Of a DNA stretch of 24,776 bases, positions 2,701 to 24,776 are shown piece by piece. How positions within the stretch are numbered: the stretch's first letter is position 1; every line of letters starts with the position of its first letter. Position numbers and translations under genes: made by a program. The notes beneath the pieces were generated by a model. The model saw only the letters and a list, made by a program, of their open reading frames with translations. It was not told the DNA's origin and did not search any database. Source of the stretch: a virus (Duplodnaviria > Heunggongvirae > Uroviricota > Caudoviricetes); IMG/VR virus record IMGVR_UViG_2778261457_000006, positions 1 through 24,776 of that record, one strand, 5' to 3'.

Positions 2701-2705
2701 AATAT

Positions 2706-4262: not shown

Positions 4263-4294
4263 TTTTTTTTGCAAATCACAAAGTCCATTTAATG

Positions 4295-4318
4295 AGCCTC
4301 GCGATGCGGGGCTTTTTT
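4295..4318 (+). terminator. rho-independent terminator downstream of Rz
   Basis: Stem agcctcg/cggggct (7 bp with one G-U), 5-nt loop, then TTTTTT 4313-4318. Confidence 0.6.
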
Positions 4319-4465
4319 ATGTCCGCAGTAAACGCGCTTCACACGCGCGACTTATGAACACAGAGCCTTTCAGGATGACCCTTGAGGATGCCGGTTTGGT
4401 AATCGGTGCCTTTCTGTGGGCCGGAATCCTGTGTGACAAGGTTCATCACTAAAAGGTAATCACCG

Positions 4466-5008
4466 ATGAATTATCCAACTATCGTTGACGGCATTGATTT
4501 CAAAGAACTGGTTTTTATTACCAACAATGACCCTGTCACCGATTCATTTATGGTGGCGAAAGCATTTCGTAAGCGACATGACAACGTTGTGCGTGATGTA
4601 GAAAGAACTATCGCTGCTTGTCCTGAAGAGTTTGATACAAAACTCAATTTTGAGGTTTGCTATAAAAACAATGAGTTACAGAATGGTAAGCCACAAAAAT
4701 TCTATCGGCTACGTAAGGATGGGTTGATGCTTTTGGTTATGTCCTACACCAAAAAAGAAGCAATGCGTATCAAAATTGCTTACATCAACGCATTCAACTG
4801 GATGTACGCCATGCTTCAGGTTGGTCATCGTCAATTTGAAGAAGAGAGAAATGCCGTAATGCTGGAGTACATGAAAGAGAAGGATGTTGCCAGCATGTCA
4901 GGCCGCCTGCTTAATCGCTGGGGAAAAATTAAGAAGCCTCAGCTACTGGCGAGAATTGAACGCCTTGAACAGCACGGGCAAACCGTAATCCCCGGACTCA
5001 CCAATTAA
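4466..5008 (+). CDS. rha: Rha-family phage regulatory protein (180 aa)
   Basis: N-terminal ...ELVFITNNDPVTDSFMVAKAFRKRHDNVVRDVE... is the recalled Rha-family signature (F-KRHDNVLRDI). Confidence 0.75.
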   Translation: MNYPTIVDGIDFKELVFITNNDPVTDSFMVAKAFRKRHDNVVRDVERTIAACPEEFDTKLNFEVCYKNNELQNGKPQKFYRLRKDGLMLLVMSYTKKEAMRIKIAYINAFNWMYAMLQVGHRQFEEERNAVMLEYMKEKDVASMSGRLLNRWGKIKKPQLLARIERLEQHGQTVIPGLTN

Positions 5009-5166
5009 CGGCAGTACCACGAAACAACCCAAGCCAGTAAGTGGGGAAATAACACTGGCAGCCACTGAAAGATGAACCTCCAGCCTTATGGCAAAAAAGA
5101 TTCTTTGTGGTGGCGGACTGATGGAAAGACCTCCTAATCAAGCAACCACTCTACAGGGTCATAATT

Positions 5167-5538
5167 ATGAACGACCAGCAAATCGAAAAAGAAATCGTTG
5201 AGAAAGGCAAAACGGCGCCGCGCGTTACGCCAGACCATATCGAAGGCATTATTGCTCAGGAGGCATATTTCACAGCAGAGGATGGTGCCTTTGGCAAAGC
5301 CATAAAAGCGAAACATACTGGCGGAGAGGTAAACTACCAGCCGCACGAATCACTTTCTCTGCTGACGTTCTGCGTCCTGGTGCTGCGCAACGGCTTCACC
5401 GTCACCGGAGAGAGTGCCTGTGCAAGTCCGGAAAATTTTGATGCAGAAATTGGTCGGAAGATTGCCCGGCAGAATGCTGTAAACAAAATCTGGATGCTCG
5501 AAGGTTACTTGCTGAAGCAGAAGCTAAGCGAACAGTAG
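5167..5538 (+). CDS. Gp49-like protein (phage N4 gp49 / Sf6 gp66 family, 123 aa), function unknown
   Basis: Translation contains ...LLTFCVLVLRNGFTVTGESACASPENFDAEIGRKIARQNAVNKIWMLEGYLLKQ..., recalled as characteristic of this family, which often sits upstream of terS. Confidence 0.6.
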   Translation: MNDQQIEKEIVEKGKTAPRVTPDHIEGIIAQEAYFTAEDGAFGKAIKAKHTGGEVNYQPHESLSLLTFCVLVLRNGFTVTGESACASPENFDAEIGRKIARQNAVNKIWMLEGYLLKQKLSEQ

Positions 5539-5913: not shown

Positions 5914-6408
5914 ATGAATATGGCAGCACCAAAGGGCAACCGATTTTGGGAGGCCCGCAGTAGTCATGGGCGAAACCCTAAATTCGAATCGCCTGAGGCG
6001 CTGTGGGCTGCTTGTTGTGAATACTTCGAGTGGGTGGAAACTAACCCGCTATGGGAGATGAAGGCGTTCTCGTATCAGGGTGAAGTGATACAAGAGCCTA
6101 TCGCCAAGATGCGAGCGATGACCATCACCGGACTCACTCTGTTCATTGATGTGACGCTTGAAACATGGCGCACATATCGCCTGCGAGAAGATTTATCTGA
6201 AGTCGTTACGCGAGCAGAGCAGGTCATCTACGACCAGAAATTCTCTGGCGCAGCCGCTGACCTTCTCAACGCTAATATCATCGCCCGTGATTTGGGCCTC
6301 AAAGAGCAGTCGCAAGTTGAAGACGTGACACCTGATAAGGGAGATCGCGATAAGCGACGCTCTCGTATCAAGGAGCTATTCAACCGTGGAACTGGACGCG
6401 ATTCTTGA
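5914..6408 (+). CDS. terminase small subunit (P22 gp3-like, 164 aa; alternative start at 5920)
   Basis: Translation ...[46 protein letters not shown]... matches recalled P22 gp3. 3' end overlaps terL. Confidence 0.88.
6188..6209 (+). other. candidate P22-type pac site (AAGATTTATCTGAAGTCGTTAC) inside terS
   Basis: The sequence gaagatttatctgaagtcgttacgcg lies near codon 92 of terS and matches my recollection of the P22 pac site, which lies inside gene 3. Recalled from memory, not verified. Confidence 0.5.
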
Positions 6409-7885
6409 TAACTTGAGCGACGAAGAGCAAATCGAATTGCTCGAGCTACTCGAAGAAGAAGAGAACTACCGTAACACACACCTGCTATATGAATTTACGC
6501 CATACAGCAAACAGCGTGAGTTCATCGACGCCGGGCATGACTATCCAGAGCGCTGTTTTATGGCTGGTAACCAGCTTGGTAAGTCATTTACTGGTGCTGC
6601 TGAAGTCGCGTTTCACCTTACCGGGCGTTATCCGGGCACAAAAGGCTATCCTGCTGATGGTAAATATGGCGGTGAGTGGAAAGGTAAGCGTTTTTATGAG
6701 CCTGTTGTCTTTTGGATTGGTGGCGAGACAAACGAGACTGTAACCAAAACGACTCAACGCATCCTGTGTGGTCGTATCGAAGAGAATGGTGAGCCAGGCT
6801 ACGGTTCCATACCGAAAGAAGACATCATTAGCTGGAAGAAGTCTCCTTTCTTTCCGAACCTTGTTGATCATCTTCTGGTTAAGCATCACACGGCTGATGG
6901 CGTTGAAGATGGCATTTCAATCTGCTACTTCAAGCCATACTCGCAAGGCCGTGCTCGCTGGCAGGGTGATACAATCCATGGCGTGTGGTTTGACGAAGAA
7001 CCACCATACAGCATTTATGGCGAAGGCCTTACCCGTACCAACAAATACGGGCAATTCTCAATTCTGACGTTTACCCCGCTGATGGGGATGTCTGACGTTG
7101 TTACCAAGTTCCTGAAGAATCCCAGCAAGTCGCAGAAAGTGGTCAACATGACCATCTACGACGCTGAGCACTACACCGACGAGCAAAAAGAGCAAATCAT
7201 CGCATCCTATCCCGAGCATGAGAGAGAGGCGCGTGCTCGCGGTATTCCTACGATGGGTAGCGGTCGAATCTTCCAGATACCGGAAGAGACGATTAAGTGT
7301 CAGCCGTTCGAGTGTCCGGATCACTTCTACGTAATTGGCGGGATGGATTTCGGATGGGATCACCCACAGGCGCAGGTTCAGCTTTGGTGGGATAAGGACG
7401 CAGACATAATCTACCTTTCACGCGTGTGGAAGGCGAAAGAAAAGACAGCCGTTCAGGCGTGGGGAGCCGTTAAACCATGGGCGCATAAAGTGCCAACCGC
7501 ATGGCCCCATGACGGAAACCAGCACGAGAAGGGCGGCGGTGAGCAGCTCAAAGGGCAGTATGCGGACGCTGGATTTATGATGTTGCAGGAGCATGCGACA
7601 TGGCCTGATGGCGGCAATGCTGTTGAGCCTGGAATCACTGAATTGCGCGACATGATGCTAGATGGTCGCTTCAAGGTATTCAACACCTGTGAACCATTCT
7701 TTGAGGAATTCCGCCTCTATCACCGTGATGAAAACGGGAAGATCGTCAAGCTTAACGACGACGTTCTCTCAGCCGTTCGCTATGCATACATGATGCGCCG
7801 CTTCGCCAAAATGATGCGCGACATCAAAAAACCAAAAGAGAAAAAGATACCAGCCCCAATCAGGCCCATCGCACGGAGAACTTAA
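6386..7885 (+). CDS. terminase large subunit (P22 gp2-like, 499 aa)
   Basis: Full-length match to recalled P22 gp2 ([37 protein letters not shown]...). Walker A-like GNQLGKS. Confidence 0.93.
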
Positions 7886-10051
7886 ATGGCCGACGAAAAC
7901 AGACTCAATTCCATTCTGTGTAAGTTTGACGCGGACTGGATGGCGAGCGATGAAGCCAGAACCGAGGCGACAAATGACCTGTATTTTAGCCGAGTGTCGC
8001 AATGGGATGACTGGCTATCAAACTACACCACCCTGCAATATCGCGGACAATTCGATGTTGTTCGCCCGGTGGTCAGGAAGCTGGTCGCAGAGATGCGCCG
8101 GAACCCTATCGACGTTCTCTTCCGACCCAAAGACGGCGCTAATCCTGATGCAGCCGATGTGTTGATGGGGATGTATCGTACTGATATGCGCCATAATACG
8201 GCAAAAATTGCCGTTAACGTTGGCGTTCGTGAGCAGATAGAGTCAGGCGTTGGTGCATGGCGTCTGGTCACGCAGTACGAAGACAACGATCCAACAAGCA
8301 ACAATCAGGTAATCCGACGCCTGCCAATCCATGAAGCCTGCTCACACGTCATATGGGACGCCAACAGCAAGCAGATGGATAAGAGCGACGCTAAGCACTG
8401 CACGGTGATTAACGCCTTGTCACGCAATGGCTGGAAAGAGTTCGCAGAGGATTACGGTATTGATCCGGATACCTTGCCATCTTTCCAGAATCCGAACGAC
8501 ACATGGCTGTTTCCGTGGGTATCGAATGATGTCGTCTACGTCGCTGAGTATTACGAGGTAGAAGAGAAGAAGGAGAAAGTCTTCATCTACCGCGACCCGC
8601 TGACAGGTGAGCCGGTCAGCTATTACCAGCAGGATATCAAAGACGTCATCGACGACCTGGCTAATCGTGGATTCATTAAGGTAGCAGAGCGTAAGGTCAA
8701 GCGTCGGCGTGTGTATAAGTCGATCATCACCTGCACGCAGATACTGAAAGACCGCGAGAAGATAGCTGGAGAGCATATCCCAATCGTTCCTGTGTACGGC
8801 GAATGGTCATTCGCTGGTGACAAGGAGTGCTACGAGGGCGTGGTAAGGCTGACGAAAGACGGTCAACGCCTTCGTAACATGATCATGTCGTTCAACGCCG
8901 ATATTGTTGCTCGTTCACCGAAGAAGAAACCTACCTTCTTCCCTGAGCAAATCGAAGGCTACGAATACATGTACGGTGGAAATGATGACTATCCGTACTA
9001 TCTGCAGAACAGGACCGATGAAAACGGTAACGACCTGCCGATTGGTCCAATCTCCTACATGGAAAACCCTGAAGTGCCGCAAGCCAACGCTTACATGCTT
9101 GAGGCTGCCACCAACGCAGTGAAAGAGGTGGCTAGTCTTGGCGTGGATGCGCAGGCGGCAAACTCTCAGGTCGCTTTCGATACCGTCAATCAACTGAACA
9201 TGCGGGCAGATCTTGAGACATACGTGTTTCAGGATAACCTGGCTACCGCAATGCGACGTGATGGCGAGATTTATGCCTCAATGGTCAACGATATTTATGA
9301 CGTTCCTCGTCATGTAACGCTGACACTTGAAGATGGAAGCGAGAAAGACGTTCAACTCTATGCGCAAGTTGTAGATTACCAGTCTGGCAATGTGGTCACA
9401 CTCAACGATATTCGCGGTCGCTATGAGTGCTATACAGACGTTGGACCATCCTTCCAGAGCATGAAGGAACAGAACCGCGCAGAGATTCAGGAATTGCTCA
9501 CCAAGGTTCCGCAAGGTACTCCAGAGTTCCAGATGCTGATGCTGCAATACTTCACGCTCCTTGACGGTAAAGGCGTCGAGATGATGCGAGAGTACGCGAA
9601 CAAGCAACTGGTGATGATGGGGCTGAAGAAACCAGAAACACCTGAAGAGATGGAGATGGTACAACAGGCGCAACAGCAGCCGCAGCAGCCATCAGCAGAG
9701 CAAATTCAGGCGCAGGGTATCCTTCTGCAAGGCCAGGCTGAATTGCTCAAGGCAGAGAACCAACAAGCGCAGATTCAGGTTGAAGCCGCCAAGGTTGAAG
9801 CCCAAAACCAACTCAACGCCGCGAAGATTGCAGAAATCTTCAACAATATGGACCTCGACAAGCAGGCAGAACTGCGTGAGTACCTCAAGCTCGTAGGTCA
9901 ATTCCAGCAACAGCGCAGCAAAGATGCTCGTGCTAACGCTGAGCTGCTTCTTAAAGATGCAGACCAGACTCATTCACAACGCATGGATTTCGCGAATCTT
10001 ATGCGTCAAGTTCAAATCCCCTCCGGCGGAGTAGCCGAGACACCTCAATAA
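7886..10051 (+). CDS. portal protein (P22 gp1-like, 721 aa)
   Basis: Full-length match to recalled P22 portal (..[32 protein letters not shown].., C-terminal Gln-rich barrel region). Confidence 0.93.
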
Positions 10052-10064
10052 GAGAGAGTTAATC

Positions 10065-10976
10065 ATGGACCAAACCACCGACATTCAGGCTTCTGAAGAG
10101 TTAACCCTGCCCGGCAATCATGCAGCGGCATCTGCTGATGGCTTAGTTGTCGATAATGCCAACGACAACGCAGGTCAGGAAGAAGGCTTCGAGATTGTCC
10201 TGAAAGACGATGAGAAACCAAAACAAGACCCGGCAACTAATGCTGAATTTGCCCGTCGCCGCATCGAACGCAAACGCCAGCGTGAGCTTGAGCAGCAGAT
10301 GGAAGCGGTTAAGCGAGGGGAGTTGCCGGAGCACCTGCGGGTGAACCCTGAGTTACCAAAACAACCAGACCCTAACGATTATCTTTCCGAAGATGCACTG
10401 GCTAAGTACGACTATGACCAGAGCCGCGCACTGGCTGCCTTCCAGCAGGCAAACAGTGAATGGCAGATCAAGGCTATGGACGCACGAAGCCAGGCTGTCG
10501 CCGAGCAGGGTCGCAAAACTCAGGAGTTCACCCAGCAATCAGCGCAATACGTCGAGGCAGCCCGTAAGCACTACGACGCAGCGGAAAAGCTCAATATCCC
10601 TGACTATCAGGAGAAAGAGGATACATTCATGCAACTGGTGCCGCCAGCAGTCGGTGCCGACATCATGCGCCTCTTCCCGGAGAAATCCGCCGCTCTCATG
10701 TATCACCTTGGTGCTAATCCTGAGAAAACACGCCAGTTGCTGGCGATGGACGGGCAATCCGCGCTGATTGAACTCACTCGACTGTCAGAACGTTTAACTC
10801 TCAAGCCTAGAGCCAAACCTGTTTCAGAAGCCCCGCTACCTGATGAACCCATTCAGGGACACGCTGTTGCTGCAAATATCTCTGCGATTGAAAAGCAGAT
10901 GGAAGCGGCAGCAAACAAAGGGGATGTAGAGACATATCGCAAGCTCAAGGCGCAACTGAATAAAGGAATTCGATAA
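10065..10976 (+). CDS. scaffolding protein (P22 gp8-like, 303 aa)
   Basis: Match to recalled P22 gp8 (..[29 protein letters not shown].., C-terminal ..[13 protein letters not shown]..). Confidence 0.9.
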
Positions 10977-12271
10977 TGGCATTAAATGAAGGTCAACTGG
11001 TCACGTATGCTCTGGATGAAATCATCGAAACCGTCCAGAACCTGACGCCAATGGCGTCCAAAGTGACAAAATACACCCCTCCGGCAGAATCCATGCAACG
11101 TTCAAGCAACACCGTGTGGATGCCTGTTGAGCAGGAAGCGCCAACTCAGACTGGCTGGGATTTAACTGGCAAAGCAACCGGGATTCTGGAACTCTCCGTG
11201 AAATGCAACATGGGCGATCCGGATAACGATTTCTTCGAGCTTCGTGCAGATGACCTGCGTGATGAGCGTTCTTACCGTCGCCGCATCCAGGCATCCGCCA
11301 AAAAATTGGCGAATAACATTGAGTCAGCAATTGCCAAACAGGCAACCGAAATGGGCTCACTTGTTGTTCACGATACCCGCGCAATTGGTCCATCTACTGG
11401 CCTGTCTGGCTGGGATTTTGTGTCTGATGCAGAGCGACTGATGTTCTCCCGCGAACTCAACCGCGACATGGGAATCAGTTACTTCCTGAACCCTGACGAT
11501 TACCGCAAAGCAGGCCGCAACCTGGTAGATGGTGACATCTTTGGGCGCGTTCCTGAAGAAGCGTATCGTAACGGTACTATTCAGCGTCAGATTGCTGGCT
11601 TTGATGAAATTCTTCGCTCACCGAAACTTCCGGCAGTTACCAAGTCAACCGCTACTGGTGTAACTGTTTCTGGTGCGCAGAAGTTTAAGCCGCAGGCATA
11701 CACCCTTGATACCGATGGTAACAAAGAGAACGTCGACAACCGTGTTGCAACGGTGACCGTATCCTCAACCACCGGATTTAAGCGCGGCGACAAAATCAGC
11801 TTCACTGGTGTGAAATTCCTGTCTCAGATGGCGAAGAACGTGCTGACTGATGATGCTACTTTCTCAATCACCCGTGTGATCGATGGTACTCACATAGAAA
11901 TCACGCCGAAGCCGATTGCGCTTGATGACGCTTCACTGACAAAAGAAGAGAAGGCTTACGCTAACGTAAACACCTCTCTTGCTGATACCACTCCGGTAAA
12001 CGTTCTGAACGTGGCAACAACCACCGCTAACGTGTTCTGGGCTGATGACTCAATCCGTCTGCTGTCTCAGCCGATCCCGGTAACCCATGAACTGTTTGCT
12101 GGCATGAAAACGTCTTCCTTCAGCATTCCTGGTATTGGTGTTAACGGCATCTTCGCAACGCAGGGAGATATCAACACCCTGTCTGGTAAGTGCCGTATTG
12201 CTGTGTGGTATTCAGCATGTGCTGTACGACCAGAGGCAATTGGTGTTGGTCTGCCTAACCAGACTGCGTGA
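10976..12271 (+). CDS. major coat protein (P22 gp5-like, 431 aa)
   Basis: Match to recalled P22 coat protein (MALNEGQ..., ..[11 protein letters not shown].., ..GTIQRQ.AGFD.., C-terminal ..[13 protein letters not shown]). Confidence 0.93.
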
Positions 12272-12279
12272 TAACCAGA

Positions 12280-12301
12280 GGGAGCTTCGGCTCCCTTTTT
12301 T
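12280..12301 (+). terminator. rho-independent terminator after the coat gene (GC stem with UUCG tetraloop)
   Basis: gggagc-ttcg-gctccc followed by TTTTTT, 9 nt after the coat stop codon. Confidence 0.75.
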
Positions 12302-12315
12302 ATCTGGAGACAAGC

Positions 12316-12594
12316 ATGACACACATGATCTTTCGTCATGGCGACATGAAGAAGTGGAAAGGCGTTGGCTACGACTTTGAAATCGTGAAAGCCGAAGAGC
12401 TTCAGGAATATCTGGATGCTGGCTGGTTTTCACATCCTGATGACCTTTTGAAGGATGTTGCAGAGCCAGAGCAAGAGCCAGAGCCAGAGCCAGAGCCAGA
12501 GCAAGAGCCAGAGCCAGAGCAAGAAGAAAAACAGCGTAAAAAGCCTGGTCGAAAACCTAAGGCGGCAGCAGATGAACCTGACAACGAAGGGTGA
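12316..12594 (+). CDS. small hypothetical protein (92 aa) with acidic (EP/EQ)n repeat linker and basic C-terminus
   Basis: GGAGA (12306-12310) then ATG 12316. Translation [92 protein letters not shown]. Its 3' end overlaps the gp4 start by 23 nt. Not recognised. Confidence 0.5.
12463..12522 (+). repeat. tandem hexanucleotide repeat, 10 units of GAGCCA/GAGCAA
   Basis: Directly visible 60-bp array gagcca gagcaa gagcca gagcca gagcca gagcca gagcaa gagcca gagcca gagcaa. It produces repetitive artefact ORFs in the other frames and on the opposite strand. Confidence 0.9.
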
Positions 12595-13072
12595 TTTAGT
12601 TCTTGCGGCATTACGTAAGCTCGGTGTGGCATCAAATGCCACGTTAACCGATGTCGAACCGCAGTCTATGGAAGACGGCGTCAACGACCTTGAAATGATG
12701 ATGGCTGAATGGCTTGGCGGTGATGCGTCACCAGGTATCAACGTTGGCTACATTTTCGCTGATGCAGATGTCGCTCCAGATCCGGGCGATGAGCACGGTT
12801 TATCAAATAACGCTATCAATGCCGTCATTTTCAACCTTGCCTGCCGCATTGCTCCGGATTATGCGCTGGAAGCGTCTACAAAACTTATAACCACTGCCAG
12901 ATACGGGAAAGAGCGACTCGTCAAACTGTCTGCAATGGACAGAGCAAAAGCCGCTAAATGTAAGTCCGGTTATCCAAACCGTATGCCTGTTGGTAGCGGT
13001 AATCAGTTGGCGAAGTGGAACGGTTGGAATTACTTCCAGCGAAAGGAACCTTGCGATAACGGGAGCGAATAA
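12572..13072 (+). CDS. head completion / tail accessory factor (P22 gp4-like, 166 aa)
   Basis: Translation [41 protein letters not shown]... matches recalled P22 gp4. The ORF track's start at 12455 lies in the repeat and is likely not the real start. Confidence 0.85.
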
Positions 13073-14490
13073 TGCCGATTCAGCAACTTCCGCTCATGAA
13101 AGGTGTCGGCAAAGACTTCCGAAATGCCGACTATATCGACTATCTGCCAGTGAATATGCTGGCTACACCCAAAGAAATCCTGAACAGCAGCGGATATCTT
13201 CGCTCATTCCCTGGCATTACCAAACGTTCTGATGTGAACGGTATATCGCGCGGTGTCGAGTACAACATGGCGCAGAATGCTGTTTATCGTGTGTGTGGCG
13301 GCAAGCTCTACAAAGGCGAAAGCGAAGTCGGTGATGTCGCCGGAAGTGGTCGTGTATCAATGGCGCATGGCCGGACATCACAGGCTGTAGGCGTTAATGG
13401 TCAACTGGTTGAGTATCGCTATGATGGCACGGTTAAAACCGTCTCAAACTGGCCTACAGACAGCGGATTCACACAGTACGAGTTAGGTTCGGTCCGTGAC
13501 ATTACGCGTTTACGTGGGCGTTATGCGTGGTCAAAAGACGGTACTGATTCATGGTTTATCACTGACCTTGAAGACGAATCGCACCCTGACCGCTACAGCG
13601 CACAATATCGTGCCGAGTCTCAGCCGGACGGCATCATCGGTATCGGGACATGGCGAGACTTCATCGTCTGCTTTGGTTCATCGACTATTGAATATTTCTC
13701 CCTTACTGGCGCAACCACCGTTGGTGCTGCTTTGTATGTCGCGCAGCCATCACTGATGGTGCAAAAAGGCATCGCCGGAACTTACTGCAAAACGCCATTC
13801 GCTGATTCTTATGCGTTCATCAGCAATCCGGCAACAGGTGCGCCGTCTGTATACATCATCGGTTCCGGTCAGGTATCACCAATCGCCAGCGCGAGCATTG
13901 AGAAAATTCTCCGCTCCTACACTGCTGATGAACTGGCTGATGGCGTGATGGAATCGCTGCGGTTTGATGCGCATGAGTTGCTGATTATCCATCTTCCGCG
14001 CCATGTTCTGGTGTACGACGCATCTTCAAGCGCCAATGGTCCGCAATGGTGTGTGCTGAAAACAGGCCTGTATGACGATGTGTACCGCGCTATCGACTTC
14101 ATTTACGAAGGCAACCAAATAACGTGCGGCGATAAGCTTGAATCGATAACAGGGAAACTGCAGTTCGATATCAGCAGCCAGTACGACAAGCAACAGGAAC
14201 ATCTTCTGTTTACTCCGCTGTTCAAAGCGGATAACGCCAGAGTGTTCGACCTTGAGGTTGAATCGTCAACTGGCGTTGCTCAGTATGCTGACCGCCTGTT
14301 CCTCTCTGCAACCACTGACGGCATAAATTACGGTCGTGAGCAGATGATTGAGCAGAATGAACCGTTCGTTTATGACAAACGTGTTTTGTGGAAGCGAGTC
14401 GGGCGTATCAGGAAAAATGTCGGCTTCAAATTGCGCGTTATCACGAAGTCACCTGTCACTCTGTCTGGCGCTCAGATAAGGATTGAGTAA
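13072..14490 (+). CDS. tail accessory factor (P22 gp10-like, 472 aa)
   Basis: Full-length match to recalled P22 gp10 ([46 protein letters not shown]...). Confidence 0.9.
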
Positions 14491-15338
14491 TGGCGGATTC
14501 GAATCTCAATGTGCCGGTAATCATTCAGGCTACACGGCTCGACACATCAGTCCTTCCACGCAATATCTTCTCGCAGTCGTATCTGCTTTACGTTATCGCA
14601 CAGAGCACTGATGTTGGTAACGTGGCTAACAAGGCCAACGAGGCCGGACAGGGCGCTTATGATGCACAGGTCAGGAACGATGAGCAGGATGTGATTCTCG
14701 CTGACCATGAGCAGCGAATTTCTGCTGCGGAAGCAACGCTTGTTAATCATGAGGAGCGAATCAGCCAGGCAGAATCAACTCTTCAGGAACATGAAACGCG
14801 AATCGCTCAGAATGAAAGCGATATTGCGTCGCTTGATACCAGAGTTCAGTCGCTGGAGTCGCAGGTTTCAGACCATGAATCGCGCATCGATTCTCTGGAG
14901 TATGCCACTACTCGCAAGAAGTCAGAGGTTGTTTACTCTGGCGTATCAGTAACCATCCCGACAGCGCCGACCAACCTTGTTAGCCTGCTGAAAACGCTCA
15001 CGCCGTCATCCGGCTCGTTGGCACCATTCTTCGACACCGTTAACAACAAGATGGTTGTGTTCAACGAGAACAAAACCTTGTTCTTCAAGCTGTCGATCGT
15101 CGGGACGTGGCCCAGCGGAACCGCCAACAGGTCAATGCAGCTAACCTTTTCCGGCTCTGTTCCTGACACACTGGTAAGCAGTCGCAACTCGGCGACAACG
15201 ACCGATAACATCCTGTTAGCTACGTTCTTCAGCGTGGATAAAGACGGCTTTCTTGCCACAAATGGCAGTACGTTAACCATTCAGTCGAATGGTGCGGCGT
15301 TTACTGCCACAACCATCAAGATAATCGCGGAGCAGTGA
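14490..15338 (+). CDS. tail needle (gp26 family; 282 aa, Sf6 gp9-type with C-terminal knob)
   Basis: N-terminus [31 protein letters not shown] matches the gp26 hub-insertion domain. Central repeats DHEQRIS..NHEERIS..EHETRIA..DHESRID indicate a coiled coil. Length and C-terminal beta-rich domain fit the recalled Sf6 needle (282 aa) rather than P22 gp26 (233 aa). Confidence 0.85.
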
Positions 15339-15793
15339 TGATTCAGTTCAAACCAACGCGAAACATCGACCTGATCGAAGCAGTCGGAAATCACCCTGAC
15401 ATTATCGCCGGGAGCAACAACGGTGATGGATACGACTACAAACCTGATTGCCGTTACTTTGAGGTGAACGTGCACGGGCAGTTCGGCGGCATTGTTTACT
15501 ATCAGGAGATTCAGCCGCTGACATTCGATTGCCACGCCATGTACCTGCCAGAGATTCGCGGCTTCAGCAAGGAAATTGGGCTGGCGTTCTGGCGATACAT
15601 TCTGACTAACACCACCGTTCAGTGCGTCACATCGTTCGCCGCACGCAAATTCCGCCACGGTCAGATGTACTGCGCAATGATTGGCCTTAAGCGTGTCGGA
15701 ACCATCAAGAAATACTTTAAAGGCGTGGATGACGTGACTTTTTACAGCGCCACACGCGAAGAACTAATCGACTTCCTGAATCACGGGAGATAG
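15335..15793 (+). CDS. gp14-like virion assembly/ejection-associated protein (152 aa)
   Basis: Position between the needle and gp7 matches P22 gene 14. Called mainly by synteny. Confidence 0.6.
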
Positions 15794-15795
15794 CC

Positions 15796-16488
15796 ATGTT
15801 ATATGCATTTAAGCTGGGCAGAAAACTGCGCGGCGAGGAACCTTATTGCCCTGAAAAGGGTGGGAAAGGTGGCAGTTCTGATAAAAGCGCAAAGTATGCC
15901 GCAGAAGCTCAGAAGTATGCAGCAGACCTGCAAAATCAGCAGTGGCAGACGATCATGAAAAACCTTGCTCCGTTCACGCCTCTTGCGGAGCAGTATGTTA
16001 ACCAGTTGCAGAATCTTTCCAGTTTAGAAGGTCAGGGGCAGGCACTTAATCAGTATTACAACTCTCAGCAGTATAAAGACCTTGCAGGTCAGGCGCGTTA
16101 CCAGAGTCTTGCTGCTGCGGAGGCGACGGGTGGACTTGGTTCGACAGCCACAAGCAATCAACTGGCTACGATCGCGCCGACTCTCGGTCAGTCTTGGTTA
16201 TCAAACCAGATGAGCAATTACAACAATCTGGCAAACGTTGGGCTTGGTGCTCTGCAAGGTCAGGCAAACGCCGGGCAGACGTACGCCAACAACATGAGCA
16301 GCATTGCACAGCAAAGCGCAGCTCTTGCCGCTGCTAATGCCAACAAACCATCAAGTCTTCAGACAGCAATTAGTGGCGGAACGTCTGGTGCGATTGCCGG
16401 TGCAGGTCTTGCCAGCCTTTTGGGAACATCAACGCCTTGGGGCGCTGGCATTGGTGCTGGTATCGGATTGCTTGGCTCGTTGTTTTAA
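15796..16488 (+). CDS. ejection protein (P22 gp7-like, 230 aa)
   Basis: Translation MLYAFKLGRKLRGEEPYCPEKGGKGGSSDKSAKYAAEAQKYAADLQ... matches recalled P22 gp7. Confidence 0.85.
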   Translation: MLYAFKLGRKLRGEEPYCPEKGGKGGSSDKSAKYAAEAQKYAADLQNQQWQTIMKNLAPFTPLAEQYVNQLQNLSSLEGQGQALNQYYNSQQYKDLAGQARYQSLAAAEATGGLGSTATSNQLATIAPTLGQSWLSNQMSNYNNLANVGLGALQGQANAGQTYANNMSSIAQQSAALAAANANKPSSLQTAISGGTSGAIAGAGLASLLGTSTPWGAGIGAGIGLLGSLF

Positions 16489-16497
16489 GGGGTAATC

Positions 16498-17886
16498 ATG
16501 GCTACTTGGCAAGGAACAAACGGCGGATTGTTGGCTGGTATCGGCGGCGTCAACTCAAACGCTCCGAGCGTAAATGACATCGGCAATACGCTTCAGCTTA
16601 TCAGGCAGAACAATGATATTGAGCGTTCAGGCGCTAACAATGTTGGGCTGACTGCTTTGCAAGGCCTTTCAGGTATTGCGGGGGTGTTTCAGCAGGAAAA
16701 GCAGGCTCAGCGGCAGAAAGAATTTCAGCAGGCATACGCTAATGCTTATGCGTCTGGTGATCGCGGTGCTTTGCGTCAGTTGGCTACTCAATATCCAGAC
16801 CAGATTGAATCTGTTCGCAAAGGCATGGGATTCATTGATGAAGACCAGCGCAATTCTATCGGCACCTTAGCGGCTGGCGCACGCCTTGCTGCCTCGTCTC
16901 CAGAAGCAATGCAATCATGGCTGCAAAGCAACGCCAAGGAACTGACTCGCGTCGGTGTTGACCCTAACAACGTTGCTCAGATGTATCAGCAGAATCCTTC
17001 AGGGTTTGGTGAGTTTGTTGATCACCTTGGGATGGCTGCTCTCGGTCCGATTGACTACTTCAATGTTCAGGACAAGATGGCTGGTCGTGAGATTGACCGA
17101 GGCAGGCTGGCAGAGACAATCCGCAGCAATCAGGCTGGCGAGGCGCTAACAGCACGAGGCCAGAACATCACGATGCGCGGTCAGGACTTATCTGCTTCTA
17201 CTGCGCGACGCGGGCAGGATTTGGCAATGCAGCGAGCGTCAACAAGAGGAACCGCTGGGAATGATGAGCGTACAGTTCAGTTATCAGATGGCAGAACTGT
17301 AACGGTAGGCGGGAAACTTCACGGCGCTGGGGCTAATGCGTTCTACGAAGGCATCGACAACGAGGGGAATATGGTTCGCGTTCCTGCCAGTTCAATCGCA
17401 GCGCCTGCAACATCGTCTTCATCAGCACAAAACTATGCCATGAAGAAGGATATCGACGCGATCGCAAATGCAGACGCTTCTGCTCTCGATTTCATGACAG
17501 GAATGACAGGCGGTGCAGGTAATCCAGCAATTGGTGCTGATGTTCGCAGCCGATTAACAGGAAAAGAGCAGCGCCAGTTATATAACTCAGCACAACGTAT
17601 TCAGGGCAGAATGCAGAATCAGGGTGTGGCGGCAGCAAGGGACATGGGTGCCAGTGGTATTAACACCGTTGCAGAAGCGAAGATGTATTTTCAGGGGATG
17701 CCGCAGGTTGACTATTCAAGCCCGGAGGCTATGCAGCAGTCGATTCGTGAGATTCAGGAATACACCAACAATTACAACCAACAATATAACGTTAATGTTG
17801 GTAAATCTCAGCGGCAGCAATCTCAACCTGCACAGGTATCACAGCCAGCAGCCAGCAGTAACTTTTCTTCACTATGGGGTGATTAA
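16498..17886 (+). CDS. ejection protein (P22 gp20-like, 462 aa)
   Basis: Size, Gly/Ala/Gln-rich composition and synteny match P22 gp20. Confidence 0.8.
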
Positions 17887-19883
17887 TGGCTAAAGCATGG
17901 AAAGATGTTATCGCCTCTCCACAGTATCAGGCGTTAGCACCAGAACAAAAAGCGCAGGCTCAGGAGCAATACTTCAATGAAGTCGTTGCCCCGCAAGCCG
18001 GAGAAAATGCAGAGCAGGCTAAGCAAGCTTTCTATGCTGCCTATCCATTGCCATCTGTGCAGCCAGTGGAGACACAGCAACCAGTAGCACAGCAACAACC
18101 ACAGCAAAGTGGATTTATGTCTGATCTTGGTGAAGCAGTAAAAGAGACTGGTCGCGGACTGGTGCAGGCTGGCGTGAACGTGGCAAACATACCTGCATCA
18201 GTTGCCGATGCTGTAACAAGCGCTGCGGCTTGGGCTGGCGGTAAACTCGGTATTGGCGATGGTACATATCAACCAGCACCACGAGTAACAACGCAGGGAT
18301 TAGAGCAGGACTTTGGCCTTCAGCAAGGCGCGCTGACTCCACAAACGACAGAGGGAAGGGTATTTGCTGAAGCATTGCCTTACCTCACTCCTGCTGGCGT
18401 TGAGAGAGCGTCAGCACAGGCACCAACACTTGCTGGTCGAATTGCTCAGGGGGCAACTCGCCTTCTCGCTGAAAACACAGTTGGATCACTTGCTGCAAAT
18501 AGTGAGAAAGATGATGCGGAAGCACTCGCCACCGATTTAGGCGTTGGTGTGCTGGCTGGCGGTGCTATTAACGCTGCCGGACGTGGATTAGGTGCTGCTT
18601 ATCGTGGCGTTCGTGGTGCTATTGCGCCAGAAGCGCAGCAGGCTATCAGATTTGCAGAGCGTGAAGGAGTTCCTCTGCACACCACAGACCTGTTACAACC
18701 CACTTCCCGCGTCGGGAAAATGGCGCAGACGACAGCGGAAAATATCCCCCTGGCTGGCACAAGCGGAATGAGAGCAACGCAACAGGAAGCGAGAAGCCAG
18801 TTGGTGCAGAGATTTGCTGATAAATTCGGTGAGTATGATCCAGCTGTTGTTATTGACAGCCTTAAAGCGAAAACATCAGGAATTCGTCGTGCTGCAGGTA
18901 ATCGACTGGAGCAGGTTCAGAATGCTATGGCAGGAGTAAACATTCAGCCTGCACGAGCAATTCAGCAGATTGATACAGAAATATCTAACCTGCAGAAGCT
19001 TGGTAAGGTCGCTGATAACGAGACTATTTCAAAACTTCAGTCCTATCGTGATGAGCTTGTTCGCAATGCTGGTCCTGATGGTCCGGTCAATCTGGATTTG
19101 AAGCAATTAAGCGATCTGCGCAGCCAGTTCAGAATGGACGTGAAGGGTGAGCGACCAGTGTTACCAAACCGTTCCGATGCTGCCATTCAGCGCGTTTACA
19201 AGGCAATGACCGACGATATCAATGGTGCCATTGGTCAGAATCTTGGCAACGATACTCTCCGTAAATATCAGCAGGCCAATGCCGTCTACGCTGACGAAGC
19301 AGCAAAACTAAAGAATACCAGGCTGAAGAATGTTCTCATGAAAGGCGATCTGACGCCGGAAGTTGTCAACAACATGCTATTCAGCAAGAACAAATCGGAA
19401 ATTAAGACTCTGTATAACTCAGTTGGTCGTGTTGGCAGGGCGCAAATGCGCAATGGCATCATTGGAAAGGCGATGGAGAAATCAGGTGGTTCCCCTGACC
19501 AGTTCCTTCGGCAGCTTAACATCCTGCAAAACCAGACTGGCATCACATTTAAAGGTCAGGAAGCCGCTTATCTGAAAGGATTGAAAAACTACCTGCAATC
19601 CACGCAGCAGGCTGCAAAAGCGGCAGTAACAACACCAACAGGGCAGCAAACCATCCCGTTCATTATCGGGTATGGGACGGCAATGAACCCGGCGACAACT
19701 GGCGCAGCGGTAAGCTACGGACTTCTTACTCGCGCCTATGAGAGCGAGCTATTCAGAAATGCAATGCTCCGAATGGCAAACACCCCACGCGGATCAACAG
19801 CCTTTGAGAAAGCAATGCAGCAGGCACAAAAGGCAATTAACGCTCTGACGCAGGGGGCTAAGTCTGATGCGTTGTCAGAATAG
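17886..19883 (+). CDS. ejection protein (P22 gp16-like, 665 aa)
   Basis: Size and synteny (last gene of the ejection-protein block) match P22 gp16. Confidence 0.8.
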   Translation: MAKAWKDVIASPQYQALAPEQKAQAQEQYFNEVVAPQAGENAEQAKQAFYAAYPLPSVQPVETQQPVAQQQPQQSGFMSDLGEAVKETGRGLVQAGVNVANIPASVADAVTSAAAWAGGKLGIGDGTYQPAPRVTTQGLEQDFGLQQGALTPQTTEGRVFAEALPYLTPAGVERASAQAPTLAGRIAQGATRLLAENTVGSLAANSEKDDAEALATDLGVGVLAGGAINAAGRGLGAAYRGVRGAIAPEAQQAIRFAEREGVPLHTTDLLQPTSRVGKMAQTTAENIPLAGTSGMRATQQEARSQLVQRFADKFGEYDPAVVIDSLKAKTSGIRRAAGNRLEQVQNAMAGVNIQPARAIQQIDTEISNLQKLGKVADNETISKLQSYRDELVRNAGPDGPVNLDLKQLSDLRSQFRMDVKGERPVLPNRSDAAIQRVYKAMTDDINGAIGQNLGNDTLRKYQQANAVYADEAAKLKNTRLKNVLMKGDLTPEVVNNMLFSKNKSEIKTLYNSVGRVGRAQMRNGIIGKAMEKSGGSPDQFLRQLNILQNQTGITFKGQEAAYLKGLKNYLQSTQQAAKAAVTTPTGQQTIPFIIGYGTAMNPATTGAAVSYGLLTRAYESELFRNAMLRMANTPRGSTAFEKAMQQAQKAINALTQGAKSDALSE

Positions 19884-19972: not shown

Positions 19973-20233
19973 TTAGTTGCTGTCTTTTTTATATAGCTCC
20001 TTGAGCGTATCAAAGACAATTTTCTTAACCATATCAGATTGTTGTTCTGCCATACGCTCTGCATCGTCAATGTAAACTGATGCAGAGCTTTGTTTATCCA
20101 ATGATTCTTCAATCGCTGCAATTATCTCTGAGTTCAGCGACCTGTTATTCATCTTCGCGCGCTGCTTAATTTTCGCGTGGAGTTCATGCGGAAGTCTCAA
20201 GTGAAACTGCGCCTCGTCGTATTTGCTGTACAT
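19973..20233 (-). CDS. mnt: Mnt-like ribbon-helix-helix repressor (about 86 aa; upstream alternative start at 20266)
   Basis: Minus-strand translation MYSKYDEAQFHLRLPHELHAKIKQRAKMNNRSLNSEIIAAIEESLDK...YIDDAERMAEQQSDMVKKIVFDTLKELYKKDSN aligns with recalled P22 Mnt along its length. GAGG lies 8 nt upstream of the internal ATG. Confidence 0.8.
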   Translation of the reverse strand: MYSKYDEAQFHLRLPHELHAKIKQRAKMNNRSLNSEIIAAIEESLDKQSSASVYIDDAERMAEQQSDMVKKIVFDTLKELYKKDSN

Positions 20234-20306
20234 CCTTGATGCCTCACCAGTTGGGTGGAATGGCATCGTAACCTACTGGATAAATACTCAATAGTACCAT
20301 TTCGGT

Positions 20307-20329
20307 ATGCAATCACATCATGGTTGCAT
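20307..20329. promoter_or_regulatory. 23-bp palindrome ATGCAATCACATCATGGTTGCAT in the mnt-tailspike divergent intergenic region (candidate operator)
   Basis: 6-bp perfect inverted arms atgcaa/ttgcat separated by 11 bp, between the two divergent start codons. Function is inferred. Confidence 0.35.
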
Positions 20330-20354
20330 CATATCATTCGTCTGGAGCAATGAA

Positions 20355-22286
20355 ATGTCAGATATCACCGCAAATGTTGTAGTGAGCATGCCTTCGCAAC
20401 TCTTCACTATGGCGCGTTCTTTTAAAGCCGTAGCCAATGGCAAAATTTATATCGGTAAAATTGACACTGACCCGGTAAACCCTGAAAACCAGATTCAGGT
20501 TTATGTGGAGAACGAAGACGGCTCTCACGTTCCTGTTTCGCAACCAATAATCATTAACGCTGCTGGTTATCCGGTATATAACGGACAGATTGCCAAGTTC
20601 GTAACTGTGCAAGGCCATTCTATGGCTGTTTATGATGCGTACGGGGCGCAGCAGTTCTATTTTCCGAATGTTCTGAAGTACGACCCGGATCAGTTCACAA
20701 ATCGCCTAGCCGATGTTTATGGCTCAACGCTGGTTGGAGGAGCGTATTTTTCTGATATAAGAACTTATTCTGAGAAATCAAAAAAAATATATTGCCTTGG
20801 GAGGTCAGGGTTATTTGATGGCGGAGAAGGATGGTTTTATTTAGATGATACAGACACTACGAGCGATGATGATGATGGAATCATTTTGGTTGGGGCTTCC
20901 GGTAGGAGATGGAAGAGGGTAATAGAAGGGAGCTACAAACCCGAATGGTGGGGAGCAGATCCTACTGACACCGTTGATTGCCATGCAGCATTTACAAAAT
21001 GCATCGCTGCTGCACGGGGTAAAGAAATTAGTTTAAGTGGTAAATATAAATTTTCAAAACCACTTGTTATTGACTTTAATGATGAGGCGAGCCTGAAAAT
21101 AACAGGTACTGGCTCTTATAATCATATGGCAAATGCCAAAACTAAAAACCTTTGCTATTTAAATTTTGATTCTATACCGCAAAATTCGCGTGCCATTACT
21201 TTTAAGGGAGTAAGAGGTCTGGTTTTAGAAGATTTTCATGTATCGCATCGTGCCGGTGGTAGTTCGCTTTCAGTCGCTTTATGGCTTACTAAAATAGATG
21301 ATTTTAGATTAACTGGTCTTACTGTGGATTCCGATACTGGACCTGGGGGGCAAGGTATCCGCTTTGGGGAATCTAATGGCACAGACTGTGCTTTCATGGG
21401 GAATATCTCTCATTGCAAAGTGTGGATGCATGGAGGTGGCCCTTCTTTCTGTGTGCAACCGGCATGTACTTCATTGCTGTTTGAAAACTGTTATGGCATT
21501 GGTGGTTATTTCTATTTCCAAAATTGTATCTATTGCTCTATGAACACTTGTGCAAGTGAAGGAAGTGAAGTTTCTGGGTATGGCTATATACTGCATTCTG
21601 TTGAAGGGTTTACTGCTATCAACTGCGCAGGGGAAGGAAATAAGTTAGGTGTTTTTTATCTATCTACAGGGTGTTCTCAAGTAGTTCTTACCTCCCCATA
21701 TGGCGCAGGGAATGGAAATCTTACTGGAGACATAGATGGAGCCCTGGTTAAGTTGGATGGCACATCCGGTGCCAATAGTAATATTTTGATAGAAAACCCA
21801 GTATCACATTCGCAGGTAGGTAATGTGACATCTGATATTAATGCTGTAGGCGTCAATGGGCACACAGAAATAACTAATGTGTATTCAGAAAAACTAACAA
21901 AAGGAATAGCTGGTTCTGATTCCTGGATTCAGAACTATTTAACAATTACAGGAGATTTGAGTTGTCGCGACTTTATACCTGGGATCCCTGGTTGGACAGC
22001 TCCAGGAGGTGCGTTAATTGAAGGAAAATTTACAAGAAATAATAAGATTGTATCTTTTTCGGTTAAAGTGTCGCCAACAAACTATCTTTCATGTGAACAT
22101 GGTCTATCAAAAACGACACTTCCGTCATTTGGAGGGCTGTTATATGGAGGTGCAGCACAGGTTTCGAATACTGCTGGTACGAACTATGGATCTGCGATGA
22201 TCGATACTAACGGTGTGGTTTGGATGCCAAACATAACCAGTACGTCAAATGCAATACTCATAAGTGGGTCTGTGTTAACAAACTAA
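20355..22286 (+). CDS. tailspike protein: P22-type N-terminal head-binding domain fused to a different beta-helix-like receptor-binding/depolymerase domain (643 aa)
   Basis: TGGAG 7 nt before ATG 20355. The first ~115 aa ([13 protein letters not shown]...[63 protein letters not shown]) match recalled P22 gp9. The remainder is unrelated to P22, AT-rich and Cys-rich. Confidence 0.88.
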
Positions 22287-22315
22287 TAAATTGATTTGAT
22301 GGGGCATGGATGGGG

Positions 22316-22374
22316 CAAAAATTAGCGCAAAACAACTCAAAATCATCACAGGTTAAGATTCGTCTTGCGCTAAT
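22316..22374 (-). terminator. candidate terminator for int (10-bp inverted repeat with long loop, then U-run on the minus strand)
   Basis: attagcgcaa (22321-22330) / ttgcgctaat (22365-22374), followed on the minus strand by TTTTT (plus 22316-22320). The 34-nt loop makes it weak. Confidence 0.3.
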
Positions 22375-22377
22375 GAT

Positions 22378-23532
22378 TCATGCTTTTCCGTCAATGAAAT
22401 CAGCCCACCACTGCATCATTTCTCTGCGCTTATCCAGATACTGAGCATGGTTGTAAATCCCGCGCACAGATCCACCGTTGGCATGCGCCAGTTGAACCTC
22501 AATCGCGTCAGCAGGCCATTCGTGCTCGTTCATAATCGTGCTGAATTCATGCCTGAATCCGTGTCCGCTTTCCAGACCCTCATATCCGATTTGTTTGATC
22601 ACAAGTAGTACAGCGTTCTCGCAAATTGGCTTCTTCTTATCGTTGCGCCCGGCAAAAACATACTCTGATACTGGTTTAGTGATTGAGCTTAGCGTAGTGA
22701 GAAGTTCAACCACCTGGTCTGACATCGGGACCACATGAATTTTGCGTCCCTTCATCACACTGGCGTCGATGGTGATAATCCTGTTTTCAAAATCGACGTT
22801 CTTCCATTGCATGGAGCGAAGCTCTTTCGTTCTTAGGGCTGTGTAGCGTAAAACTTTGGTCGCAATGAGCGATACGATACTTCCTGAAAATGTTGCCAGT
22901 GCTTTGTTGAATGCAGGGATCTGGTCTGCTGGAAGAAACGGGAAGTTCTTCTTGCGGTATCCTTTCATGGCGTCTGCAAGGTCAGGTGCCGGGTTATATT
23001 TAGCCCTTCCGGTGACAATAGCGTAACGGAAAACCTCGCCGCATCTTCTGCGGGCTTTGTTGGCTCGTTCCATTGCACCGCGATCTTCAAATCTGCGGAT
23101 TACTTCCAGCAGTTGCATCGGCTCAATATCCTGAATCTCAAGACCGCCGATGATGGGTAAAATGTCGTCATCAAACATTTTGGCAAGCTCAGTTGCATAG
23201 CCTACTGACCATACTTGCTTCTTGTGCTCGTACCATTCCTTGTAAATTGCACTAAAGGAATTGTTGTTAGACGAAGCCTTTTTCGCTTTTACCGGATCGA
23301 TGCCAACCGAGATGTCTTTCCTCGCGGTCCATGCTTTATCTCTTGCCTCCTGCAAAGTCATTAGCGGATATTTTCCTACGGTCAGGATTTTCTCCTTACC
23401 GTCAATCTTGTAGCGAAGCTGCCATACCTTTTTCCCTGACACAGGGACATAAAGGTACAGGCCATTACCATCGAGTAGGCGGTATGGTTTTTCTTTCGGC
23501 TTTGCTGCTTCAATCTGCTTAACGGTGAGCAT
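22378..23532 (-). CDS. int: tyrosine integrase, P4 family (about 384 aa from ATG 23532; ORF extends to GTG 23568)
   Basis: N-terminus MLTVKQIEAAKPKEKPYRLLDGNGLYLYVPVSGKKVWQLRYKIDGKEK is the P4-type arm-binding domain. C-terminal ..GHGFRHEF.. and ..LAHANGGSVRGIYNHAQY.. carry the catalytic His/Arg/Tyr region. Resembles my recollection of E. coli K-12 IntS next to argW. Confidence 0.9.
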   Translation of the reverse strand: MLTVKQIEAAKPKEKPYRLLDGNGLYLYVPVSGKKVWQLRYKIDGKEKILTVGKYPLMTLQEARDKAWTARKDISVGIDPVKAKKASSNNNSFSAIYKEWYEHKKQVWSVGYATELAKMFDDDILPIIGGLEIQDIEPMQLLEVIRRFEDRGAMERANKARRRCGEVFRYAIVTGRAKYNPAPDLADAMKGYRKKNFPFLPADQIPAFNKALATFSGSIVSLIATKVLRYTALRTKELRSMQWKNVDFENRIITIDASVMKGRKIHVVPMSDQVVELLTTLSSITKPVSEYVFAGRNDKKKPICENAVLLVIKQIGYEGLESGHGFRHEFSTIMNEHEWPADAIEVQLAHANGGSVRGIYNHAQYLDKRREMMQWWADFIDGKA

Positions 23533-23693
23533 GGGTAAAAATCCGGTGGGTAAAATTATTTTATCCACTTTTTACCCGTCATGGAGTGCGGCTGTCAACG
23601 ATCTGACGCGAACCATTACGAACTGTGAATCTGCGGAAGGCTTGATATTCAGGGAATTTTGCGGACTGGTACGGATGGGAGCGAACTGATAAA

Positions 23694-23768
23694 TGGTGTC
23701 CCCTGCAGGAATCGAACCTGCAATTAGCCCTTAGGAGGGGCTCGTTATATCCATTTAACTAAGAGGAC
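23694..23768 (-). tRNA. argW: tRNA-Arg (anticodon CCT), host argW
   Basis: Reverse complement GTCCTCTTAGTTAAATGGATATAACGAGCCCCTCCTAAGGGCTAATTGCAGGTTCGATTCCTGCAGGGGACACCA folds as a canonical cloverleaf with anticodon loop CTCCTAA. Matches recalled E. coli argW. Confidence 0.9.
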
Positions 23769-23843
23769 AATGCGGCATGAGTATACCCGCTAATGGACTG
23801 CGGGGTAAGTACGCTGCCGCTCGATTGCTTAAACCCTCGCCAT

Positions 23844-24776
23844 TTATGCTGGGTTTTTATCATTTTTCTTAATGTTTTCCGCACGTTCTGCTTTTTGGCG
23901 TGCTTCTGCTTTACGCTTGTTGCTCATGTCGTTACGAATCTGTGCATGACTCATTAACGCGAAGATAAAGGTGCCGCCGCAGATGTTCCCCGCTAAAGTA
24001 GGTAGTGCGAAGGGCCAGATGAAATCGCTCCAGTGCAGCGTGCCGTTAAACACCAGATAGAGGATTTCAACAGAACCGACAACGATGTGGGTGGTGTCAC
24101 CCAGTGCAATAAGCCAGGTCATCAATATAATCACCACAATCTTTGCCGCACCCGCAGCAGGAAACATCCAAACCATAGTGGCGATCAGCCAGCCGGAAAT
24201 GATCGCGTTGGCAAACATCTCGCTGGGGGTGTTCTTCATCACATCCATGCCGATTTTGACAAATGCATCGCGAGTTTCTTCATTGAAGATAGGCATATAT
24301 TCAAATGCCCATGCAGCAATACCTGTCCCGAGAATATTACCCAGCAGCACGACGCCCCATAATCGCATAAGTAAGCCGACGTTGCTCATTGTCGGTTTTT
24401 GCATGACGGGTAGTACCGCAGTCACGGTGTTTTCGGTAAATAATTGCTGGCGGGCCATAATGACGATAATAAAACCAAAGGTATAACCGAGATTCTCCAG
24501 TAAGAAGCTGCCTGGCACTCCTTCCAGTTCGACATGAAATATCCCTTTTGCCAGTAGCGAAGCGCCCATCGACAGACCCGCCGCAATGGCTGACCACAGT
24601 AGCGCCATTGCGTCGCGTTCCAGCTCTTTTTCACCATCCTGGCGGATATGCTCATGAATTGCCATCGCCCGGGAGGGGAGTCGATCTTCATCTATTTCTA
24701 TTTTTTTGCCGCGCTCTTTTTCTTCGCTCTCAACTTCAATTTCGTCGCTGTGTTGATCAATTTTGTCGTTGTCCAT
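23844..24776 (-). CDS. yfdC: inner membrane protein YfdC (formate/nitrite transporter family, 310 aa), host gene
   Basis: Minus-strand ORF ending exactly at the window edge; polytopic membrane protein. Matches recalled E. coli YfdC, which neighbours argW in K-12. Confidence 0.85.
   Translation of the reverse strand: MDNDKIDQHSDEIEVESEEKERGKKIEIDEDRLPSRAMAIHEHIRQDGEKELERDAMALLWSAIAAGLSMGASLLAKGIFHVELEGVPGSFLLENLGYTFGFIIVIMARQQLFTENTVTAVLPVMQKPTMSNVGLLMRLWGVVLLGNILGTGIAAWAFEYMPIFNEETRDAFVKIGMDVMKNTPSEMFANAIISGWLIATMVWMFPAAGAAKIVVIILMTWLIALGDTTHIVVGSVEILYLVFNGTLHWSDFIWPFALPTLAGNICGGTFIFALMSHAQIRNDMSNKRKAEARQKAERAENIKKNDKNPA

Follow-up and report, generated by a model that had tools for sequence, protein, structure and literature searches.

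The stretch of DNA analyzed here (the window, 24,776 nt) ends, at its high-numbered side, in two host genes. The gene yfdC, which belongs to the formate/nitrite transporter family, occupies positions 23844-24776 on the minus strand as a complete ORF of 310 aa, and the first base of its ATG is the last position of the window. The full Pfam domain Form_Nir_trans (PF01226, E 1.1e-48) is present, and the gene is 97.96% identical at the nucleotide level to K-12 b2347. It is separated from the next gene by an intergenic spacer of host DNA (23769-23843, minus strand), which is 75 nt long in both the window and K-12 and agrees at 74 of these 75 positions. The tRNA gene argW then follows at 23694-23768 (minus strand). 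It was identified by ARAGORN as a tRNA-Arg gene of 75 nt with anticodon CCT (cct at position 34), and the Rfam tRNA family RF00005 matched 23697-23768 with 63.4 bits (E 7.8e-12; gathering score 29). All 75 nucleotides are the same as in K-12 argW, the encoded 3' CCA included, and the gene is thus complete, without truncation. An earlier note, made from the sequence alone, had placed a complete tRNA-Arg(CCU) and the complete yfdC gene on the same strand as the integrase gene int, and this holds for all three genes, which lie on the minus strand.

Alignment of positions 22400-24776 with the yfdC-argW-intS region of E. coli K-12 MG1655 gave a single ungapped match of 2377 nt with 96.9% identity. 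Such a match is far beyond chance; it confirms the flank as yfdC-argW-intS with argW untruncated, and it bears out the proposal that the prophage sits at argW beside yfdC, the locus held by CPS-53 in K-12. The K-12 record lets the 'cryptic prophage CPS-53' begin 15 nt before the end of argW and gives the order intS, yfdG/yfdH/yfdI, tail-fibre debris, torI, the 15-nt pawZ and dsdC. Since yfdG, yfdH and yfdI are annotated there as bactoprenol-linked glucose translocase, bactoprenol glucosyl transferase and serotype-specific glucosyl transferase, the statement in the earlier note that argW and int are followed in K-12 by O-antigen modification genes was correct.

The boundary between host and phage DNA was mapped from both sides. 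From the phage side, the matches to the free phages IME10, Bas106, Dewey and Louie extend across int and end at 23708. From the host side, a search of 5,426 complete E. coli genomes showed that genomes lacking a neighbour of the intS type share sequence with the window only from 23692-23694 on. Two of these genomes were looked at in detail. In strain LD91-1, argW is directly followed by the csc sucrose genes, and 23694-24776 is matched at 100%; in BL21-AI, argW is directly followed by dsdC. Both sites are unoccupied attB sites. Since the phage matches stop at 23708 and the empty sites start at 23692-23694, the shared segment is CTGCAGGGGACACCA at 23694-23708 (minus strand), that is, the last 15 nt of argW, and this is the att core. 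How far identity with the other junction reaches depends on the host flank: to 23693 in K-12 (16 nt) and to 23692 for Kapi1 in strain MP1 (17 nt). A flank of the dsdC type adds one base of identity, which leads to the 16-nt core published for KplE1, CTGCAGGGGACACCAT (PMC2951348); for Kapi1 in strain MP1 a core of 17 nt was published (PMC8787464). The pseudo-argW of K-12, pawZ, is 15 nt long, and the attR of E. coli W also holds the core. In phage IME10 the attP reads ...GATAAATGGTGTCCCCTGCAG/ACATCTACTTGAAGCGGCAGGGG... and is followed by a torI-type gene, the layout being P'arm-TGGTGTCCCCTGCAG-P arm-torI. The attL core had been placed before in the 3' end of argW, at about 23694-23720. The location proved right, while the extent of about 27 bp did not, the core being really 15-17 bp long and reaching to 23708. 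The left boundary of the prophage is thereby fixed to the base, at 23708/23709.

The attP of such phages itself carries 15 nt of argW, and a short tRNA-like match alone is no proof of a chromosomal site. A free phage genome or an assembly artefact, with the 'host' part borne by the phage, might therefore be considered. However, the window continues with 60 further nucleotides of argW, the spacer and all of yfdC, in a run of 1083 nt that is 100% identical to an unoccupied chromosome, and the phage genomes diverge from it at 23708. The tRNA as a partial, phage-borne copy was rejected because the full 75 nt and yfdC are present, and the free-phage or chimera reading was ruled out by the 1083-nt match to the unoccupied site of LD91-1; we regard it as practically excluded. 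The window is accordingly read as crossing from a host chromosome into a prophage. The argW-yfdC flank has no mismatch against E. coli LD91-1, W or S56, and on its far side the argW site of LD91-1 and W is bordered by csc sucrose-utilisation genes, not by dsdC. This identity suggests that the host of the window belongs to a csc-positive E. coli lineage.

The gene int occupies 22378-23532 on the minus strand and codes for a tyrosine recombinase of 384 aa, which is orthologous to IntS according to its Pfam domains and its identity to IntS. The domains Arm-DNA-bind_3, Phage_int_M and Phage_integrase make it a recombinase of the heterobivalent type (arm-binding, central and catalytic domains). The protein is 98-99% identical to K-12 IntS (98%), E. 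coli W IntS and the Int of phage IME10, while the gene is 94.7% identical to K-12 intS at the nucleotide level. Apart from the last few C-terminal residues, none of the differences from IntS and IME10 Int falls in a catalytic motif. Judged from this protein identity, the product is probably an active integrase. The start was set at the ATG at 23532, because K-12 annotates an ATG and the alignment agrees. The GTG at 23568, which appears in the ORF list and was the source of the start coordinate in the earlier note, was rejected, because the −10 box at 23569-23574 places this codon upstream of the transcription start that was mapped in K-12. At the other end of the gene (22378-22400, minus strand), homology to the int genes of K-12 and IME10 ends 22 nt short of the stop codon, and the last few codons are unlike those of K-12, W and IME10. 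The C-terminus reads ...WWADFIDGKA, as compared with ...WWADW(L/I)DEKV(E/A) in relatives. Since homology stops before the stop codon, there is a mosaic joint within the 3' end of int.

Between argW and the int ATG lies the phage-derived attL arm (23533-23693, minus strand; 161 nt), of which 155 positions (96.3%) agree with K-12 attL and the part 23533-23606 is fully identical. It carries a −35 box TTGACA at 23593-23598 and a −10 box TAAAAA at 23569-23574, these being the positions of the motifs. Copies of GGGTAAAA are found at 23533-23540 (plus strand), 23548-23555 (plus strand) and 23570-23577 (minus strand), the last overlapping the −10 box. In K-12 the boxes of the intS promoter, its transcription start sites and the overlap with IntS and TorI sites have been determined experimentally (PMC2951348): the KplE1 intS promoter (TTGACA/TAAAAA) is within attL, where it overlaps with the arm-type sites of IntS (P'1-P'4) and with the sites of TorI (I1-I5), and IntS and TorI both repress it, binding and repression having been shown for K-12 only (PMC2951348). 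By sequence identity to K-12, the boxes in the window may be taken as the int promoter and the GGGTAAAA repeats as putative arm-type sites. A generic promoter scan made no call at the K-12-type intS promoter, because the −10 box TAAAAA fails the rule of the scan, and gave one other weak site. Among the six sequences compared, the half of the arm at 23533-23584, with the −10 box and the GGGTAAAA repeats, is invariant, and the variable half is 23585-23678. Arm and flank taken together are nearest to E. coli S56 (2 mismatches in the arm, 0 in argW-yfdC). As the KplE1/HK620/Sf6-type module requires, int is transcribed away from argW.

On the other side of int, the body of the prophage is dominated by a P22-type packaging and virion block at 5914-19883 (plus strand). 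It comprises open, full-length ORFs for the small and large terminase (gp3 and gp2), portal, scaffold, coat, gp4, gp10, a tail needle with a knob of the Sf6 type, gp14, gp7, gp20 and gp16, which together with the tailspike form a colinear P22-type set. The Pfam families GP3_package, Terminase_6N/6C, P22_portal, Phage-scaffold, P22_CoatProtein, P22_Tail-4, Phage_stabilise, Phage_tail_NK, DUF2824, P22_gp7, Inj_translocase and Head_binding were found at full length or nearly so, and gp16 was assigned by PHROG 770. The ORFs for terminase, portal, scaffold, coat, gp10, needle, gp7, gp20 and gp16 have the same lengths as in E. coli W and mostly also as in phage IME10. No frameshift or truncation was seen in the virion genes, and the lysis genes are likewise open and full length. 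The block is colinear with that of IME10 (95% nucleotide identity) and with that of P22 (about 82%), and all P22-specific Pfam families are in the window. The intact P22-like morphogenesis region which had been proposed for this integration hotspot is thus borne out in the form of open, full-length genes.

Several further features of the prophage body were observed. A gene for an Arc/Mnt-type repressor (Pfam Arc, Repressor_Mnt) lies at 19973-20266 (minus strand); in the E. coli W prophage this position is likewise taken by a gene of the Arc family. The tail needle gene (14490-15338, plus strand) encodes the Sf6-type C-terminal knob Phage_tail_NK (E 9e-116), as it does in E. coli W and S56. A cassette of tRNA-Asn(GTT) and tRNA-Thr(TGT) at 2626-2781 (plus strand) is flanked by the genes for the Q antiterminator (1728-2351) and the holin (3024-3347); it is 98-99% identical in HK446, mEp506, phiv205-1 and Kapi1 (98% in Kapi1), and neither the E. 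coli W prophage nor IME10 has it. The stretch from the lysis genes to the small terminase gene (4034-5537, plus strand) is unlike the E. coli W prophage; a Rha-like regulator or antirepressor ORF is found at 4466-5008 (plus strand) and an ORF of the N4 gp49 / Sf6 gene 66 family at 5167-5538 (plus strand).

The tailspike gene (20307-22286, plus strand) encodes 659 aa, with a P22-type head-binding domain (Pfam Head_binding at aa 17-129) and a divergent receptor-binding domain. Matches to PDB entries (Sf6 gp14, P22 gp9) are essentially N-terminal only; two weak ones reach further, over aa 148-240 and 23-208 (E~1e-14). No Pfam domain was found in the C-terminal part. A comparison of the receptor-binding part (20706-22286, plus strand; residues about 134-659) with 50,697 phage records gave no close match, the best being a tail fibre of the unrelated Shigella phage Sd1 with 52.8% amino acid identity. 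This part of the protein also has a partial match to PHROG 8280, 'tail spike with colanic acid degradation activity'. An exact-protein look-up gave no identical protein, and the sole near-identical copy found is on one IMG/VR prophage contig. Only 91 nt (22287-22377) separate the stop codon of the tailspike gene from that of int, and no gtr, oac or other O-antigen-modifying module is present between the two genes. In phages of this kind an O-antigen-modifying gene set normally sits between tailspike and int.

The core sequence occurs once in the window, and the second copy lies outside. The first position of the window falls in the nin/Q region; by comparison with E. coli W, some 14 kb more would be needed to reach the distal junction. 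The nearest relative found, IMGVR_UViG_2778261252_000010 (42,179 bp), is 99.03% identical over 20341-24776. One of its ends starts at the yfdC ATG, and the far end has an ORF of 66 aa of the TorI type, GGGTAAAA repeats and the core, past which come GATACCCTTCAAACG... and host DNA of the csc region, including a 289-aa membrane-protein ORF that matches the attR flank of E. coli W. The same arrangement is seen at the distal end of the E. coli W prophage, while the distal end in K-12 is torI-pawZ-dsdC. From these relatives, torI and attR would be expected in the present genome as well. A 61-mer across the tailspike/int junction was absent from species-representative genomes and was found in IMG/VR only in the 99% relative, and an 81-mer with the variants specific to the window had no match in IMG/VR. 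None of the complete RefSeq E. coli genomes contains the whole window, the best covering 86% of it at 95% identity.

The distal end bears on whether the junction might be a fossil, left by an element that has decayed like CPS-53 and can no longer be induced. Cryptic elements are often found at argW, the CPS-53 of K-12 being only 10.2 kb, and the repressor, the replication genes, xis/torI and attR are beyond the window read here. Against such decay, the genes for packaging, head, tail, ejection and lysis as well as int are all open and of full length, both ends are present in the closest relative, a contig of 42 kb, and related phages occur in free form (IME10, HZ41, Bas106, Dewey, Louie and Kapi1). 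A fossil remnant is therefore unlikely.

Taken together, the above results indicate that a P22-like (Lederbergvirus-type) temperate phage is integrated in the 3' end of argW beside yfdC and that the segment is its attL junction, a reading to which we give a probability of about 95%. Its mechanism can be drawn from the literature on the relatives. In these, the C-terminal domains of Int bind core-type sites and the N-terminal domain binds arm-type sites, strand exchange takes place within the identical core of attP and attB, and excision needs the directionality factor TorI (PMC2951348, PMC3509656, PMC8787464). Transfer of the KplE1 mechanism to the window is well founded, given the identities described above, and would give the following picture. 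The phage attP would lie between int and xis/torI and carry a 15-bp copy of the 3' end of argW, and an IntS-type recombinase would exchange strands within the core, between attP and attB. As the last 15 nt of argW come with attP, the tRNA gene would be rebuilt complete and then be followed by phage DNA. Because attP is between int and xis/torI, int and the excisionase gene would come to lie at opposite ends of the prophage; and since int points away from argW, the int promoter would be inside the attL arm. By analogy with KplE1, this promoter is probably repressed by binding of IntS and TorI in the attL arm, and excision would need IntS together with a directionality factor of the TorI type, whose gene would be at the distal end. 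On this reading, int would be autoregulated and the prophage inducible.

The comparison with the nearest relative raises the question of how the junction came to its present form. Only 1 mismatch is found in 20550-23475, against 8 in 23476-23668, so that eight of the nine differences in 20550-23693 sit in 23476-23668. Differences so unevenly spread suggest that a recombination breakpoint lies close to the 5' end of int. A P22-like genome may thus have recombined, within int or the attL arm, with an earlier resident of argW; the attL arm and the flank would then come from that earlier occupant and not from a fresh IntS-mediated integration of this phage. That arm and flank are nearest to S56, whose own P22-like prophage is a different one and has a gtr module, points in the same direction, as does the other mosaic joint at the last codons of int, which are unlike those of K-12, W and IME10. 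However, the same pattern would arise if the relative is the recombinant, or by exchange between phages before integration, and the differences are few. Assembly in place by homologous exchange is thus weakly suggested, and we hold it, as well as the descent of arm and flank from an earlier occupant, to be a tentative possibility. It is compatible with the main explanation and leaves the identity of the segment as an attL junction in argW unchanged.

The prophage combines the standard argW module with a divergent tailspike receptor-binding domain and has no O-antigen-modifying set. Somewhat speculatively, it may therefore recognise an uncharacterised surface glycan and shield its lysogen from superinfection by a route other than O-antigen conversion. 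As a separate matter, the differences in the attL arm may record replacement of a module in place at this hotspot. We put these proposals forward as conceivable and not as probable.

Compared with KplE1/CPS-53, the window has the same site (yfdC-argW), the same orientation and the same core CTGCAGGGGACACCA, and the two agree in IntS (98% at the protein level), in the attL arm (96%), in identical −35 and −10 boxes and in the GGGTAAAA repeats. In contrast, K-12 holds only 10.2 kb, with the gtr-type genes yfdG/H/I and tail-fibre fragments after intS and no virion genes, whereas in the window the 91-nt gap after int is followed by the tailspike gene and the full P22-type block. The same recombination module was described for KplE1, HK620, Sf6, CUS-3 and the prophages of APEC-O1 and UTI89 (PMC2951348), and that of KplE1, HK620, Sf6 and CUS-3 was treated further (PMC3509656). 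In the case of the P22-like phage Kapi1, the site at argW lies between yfdC and dsdC, and after integration int is found beside yfdC and xis at the far end (PMC8787464). Kapi1, HK620, Sf6, CUS-3 and IME10 are alike in that attP is between int and xis/torI and has the same core, that the int of the prophage lies beside yfdC, and that the virion genes are in the P22-type order. IME10 is 95% identical at the nucleotide level over 72% of the window. The window differs from these P22-like phages with the argW module in the receptor-binding domain of the tailspike, in the accessory genes that separate the lysis from the terminase genes, and in having no O-antigen-modifying gene beside int. IME10 differs in addition by a shorter gene-26 product, annotated as similar to P22 gene 26, while the needle of the window has the Sf6-type knob.

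E. coli W holds a complete P22-like prophage at argW, and S56 holds another. Both have the order yfdC-argW-intS-(module)-tailspike-virion genes and an identical flank, and that of E. coli W is 97% identical over 83% of the window. The module between int and tailspike is an acyltransferase gene in E. coli W and a gtrABC-type set in S56, which has, moreover, a different variant of terminase, portal and coat; the tailspikes of both are other than that of the window. Phage P22 itself, which is alike in the morphogenesis genes, has a different integrase and integrates at thrW, and its attP is downstream of int, in a lambda-like manner, and not between int and xis.

Among the 5,426 complete E. coli genomes, the yfdC-argW-intS arrangement is present in 1,686-1,717 (about 31%). 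A P22-like prophage junction at argW is thus ordinary, well documented and already known, in an arrangement that is common. The result serves mainly for correct annotation, since it gives the boundary of the prophage, an intact argW, E. coli as the host and membership in the IntS/TorI recombination group. It adds one more example of the argW-dsdC/csc region as a busy hotspot of integration, and it agrees with, but does not prove, the view that the CPS-53 of K-12 is the stump of such a P22-like phage.
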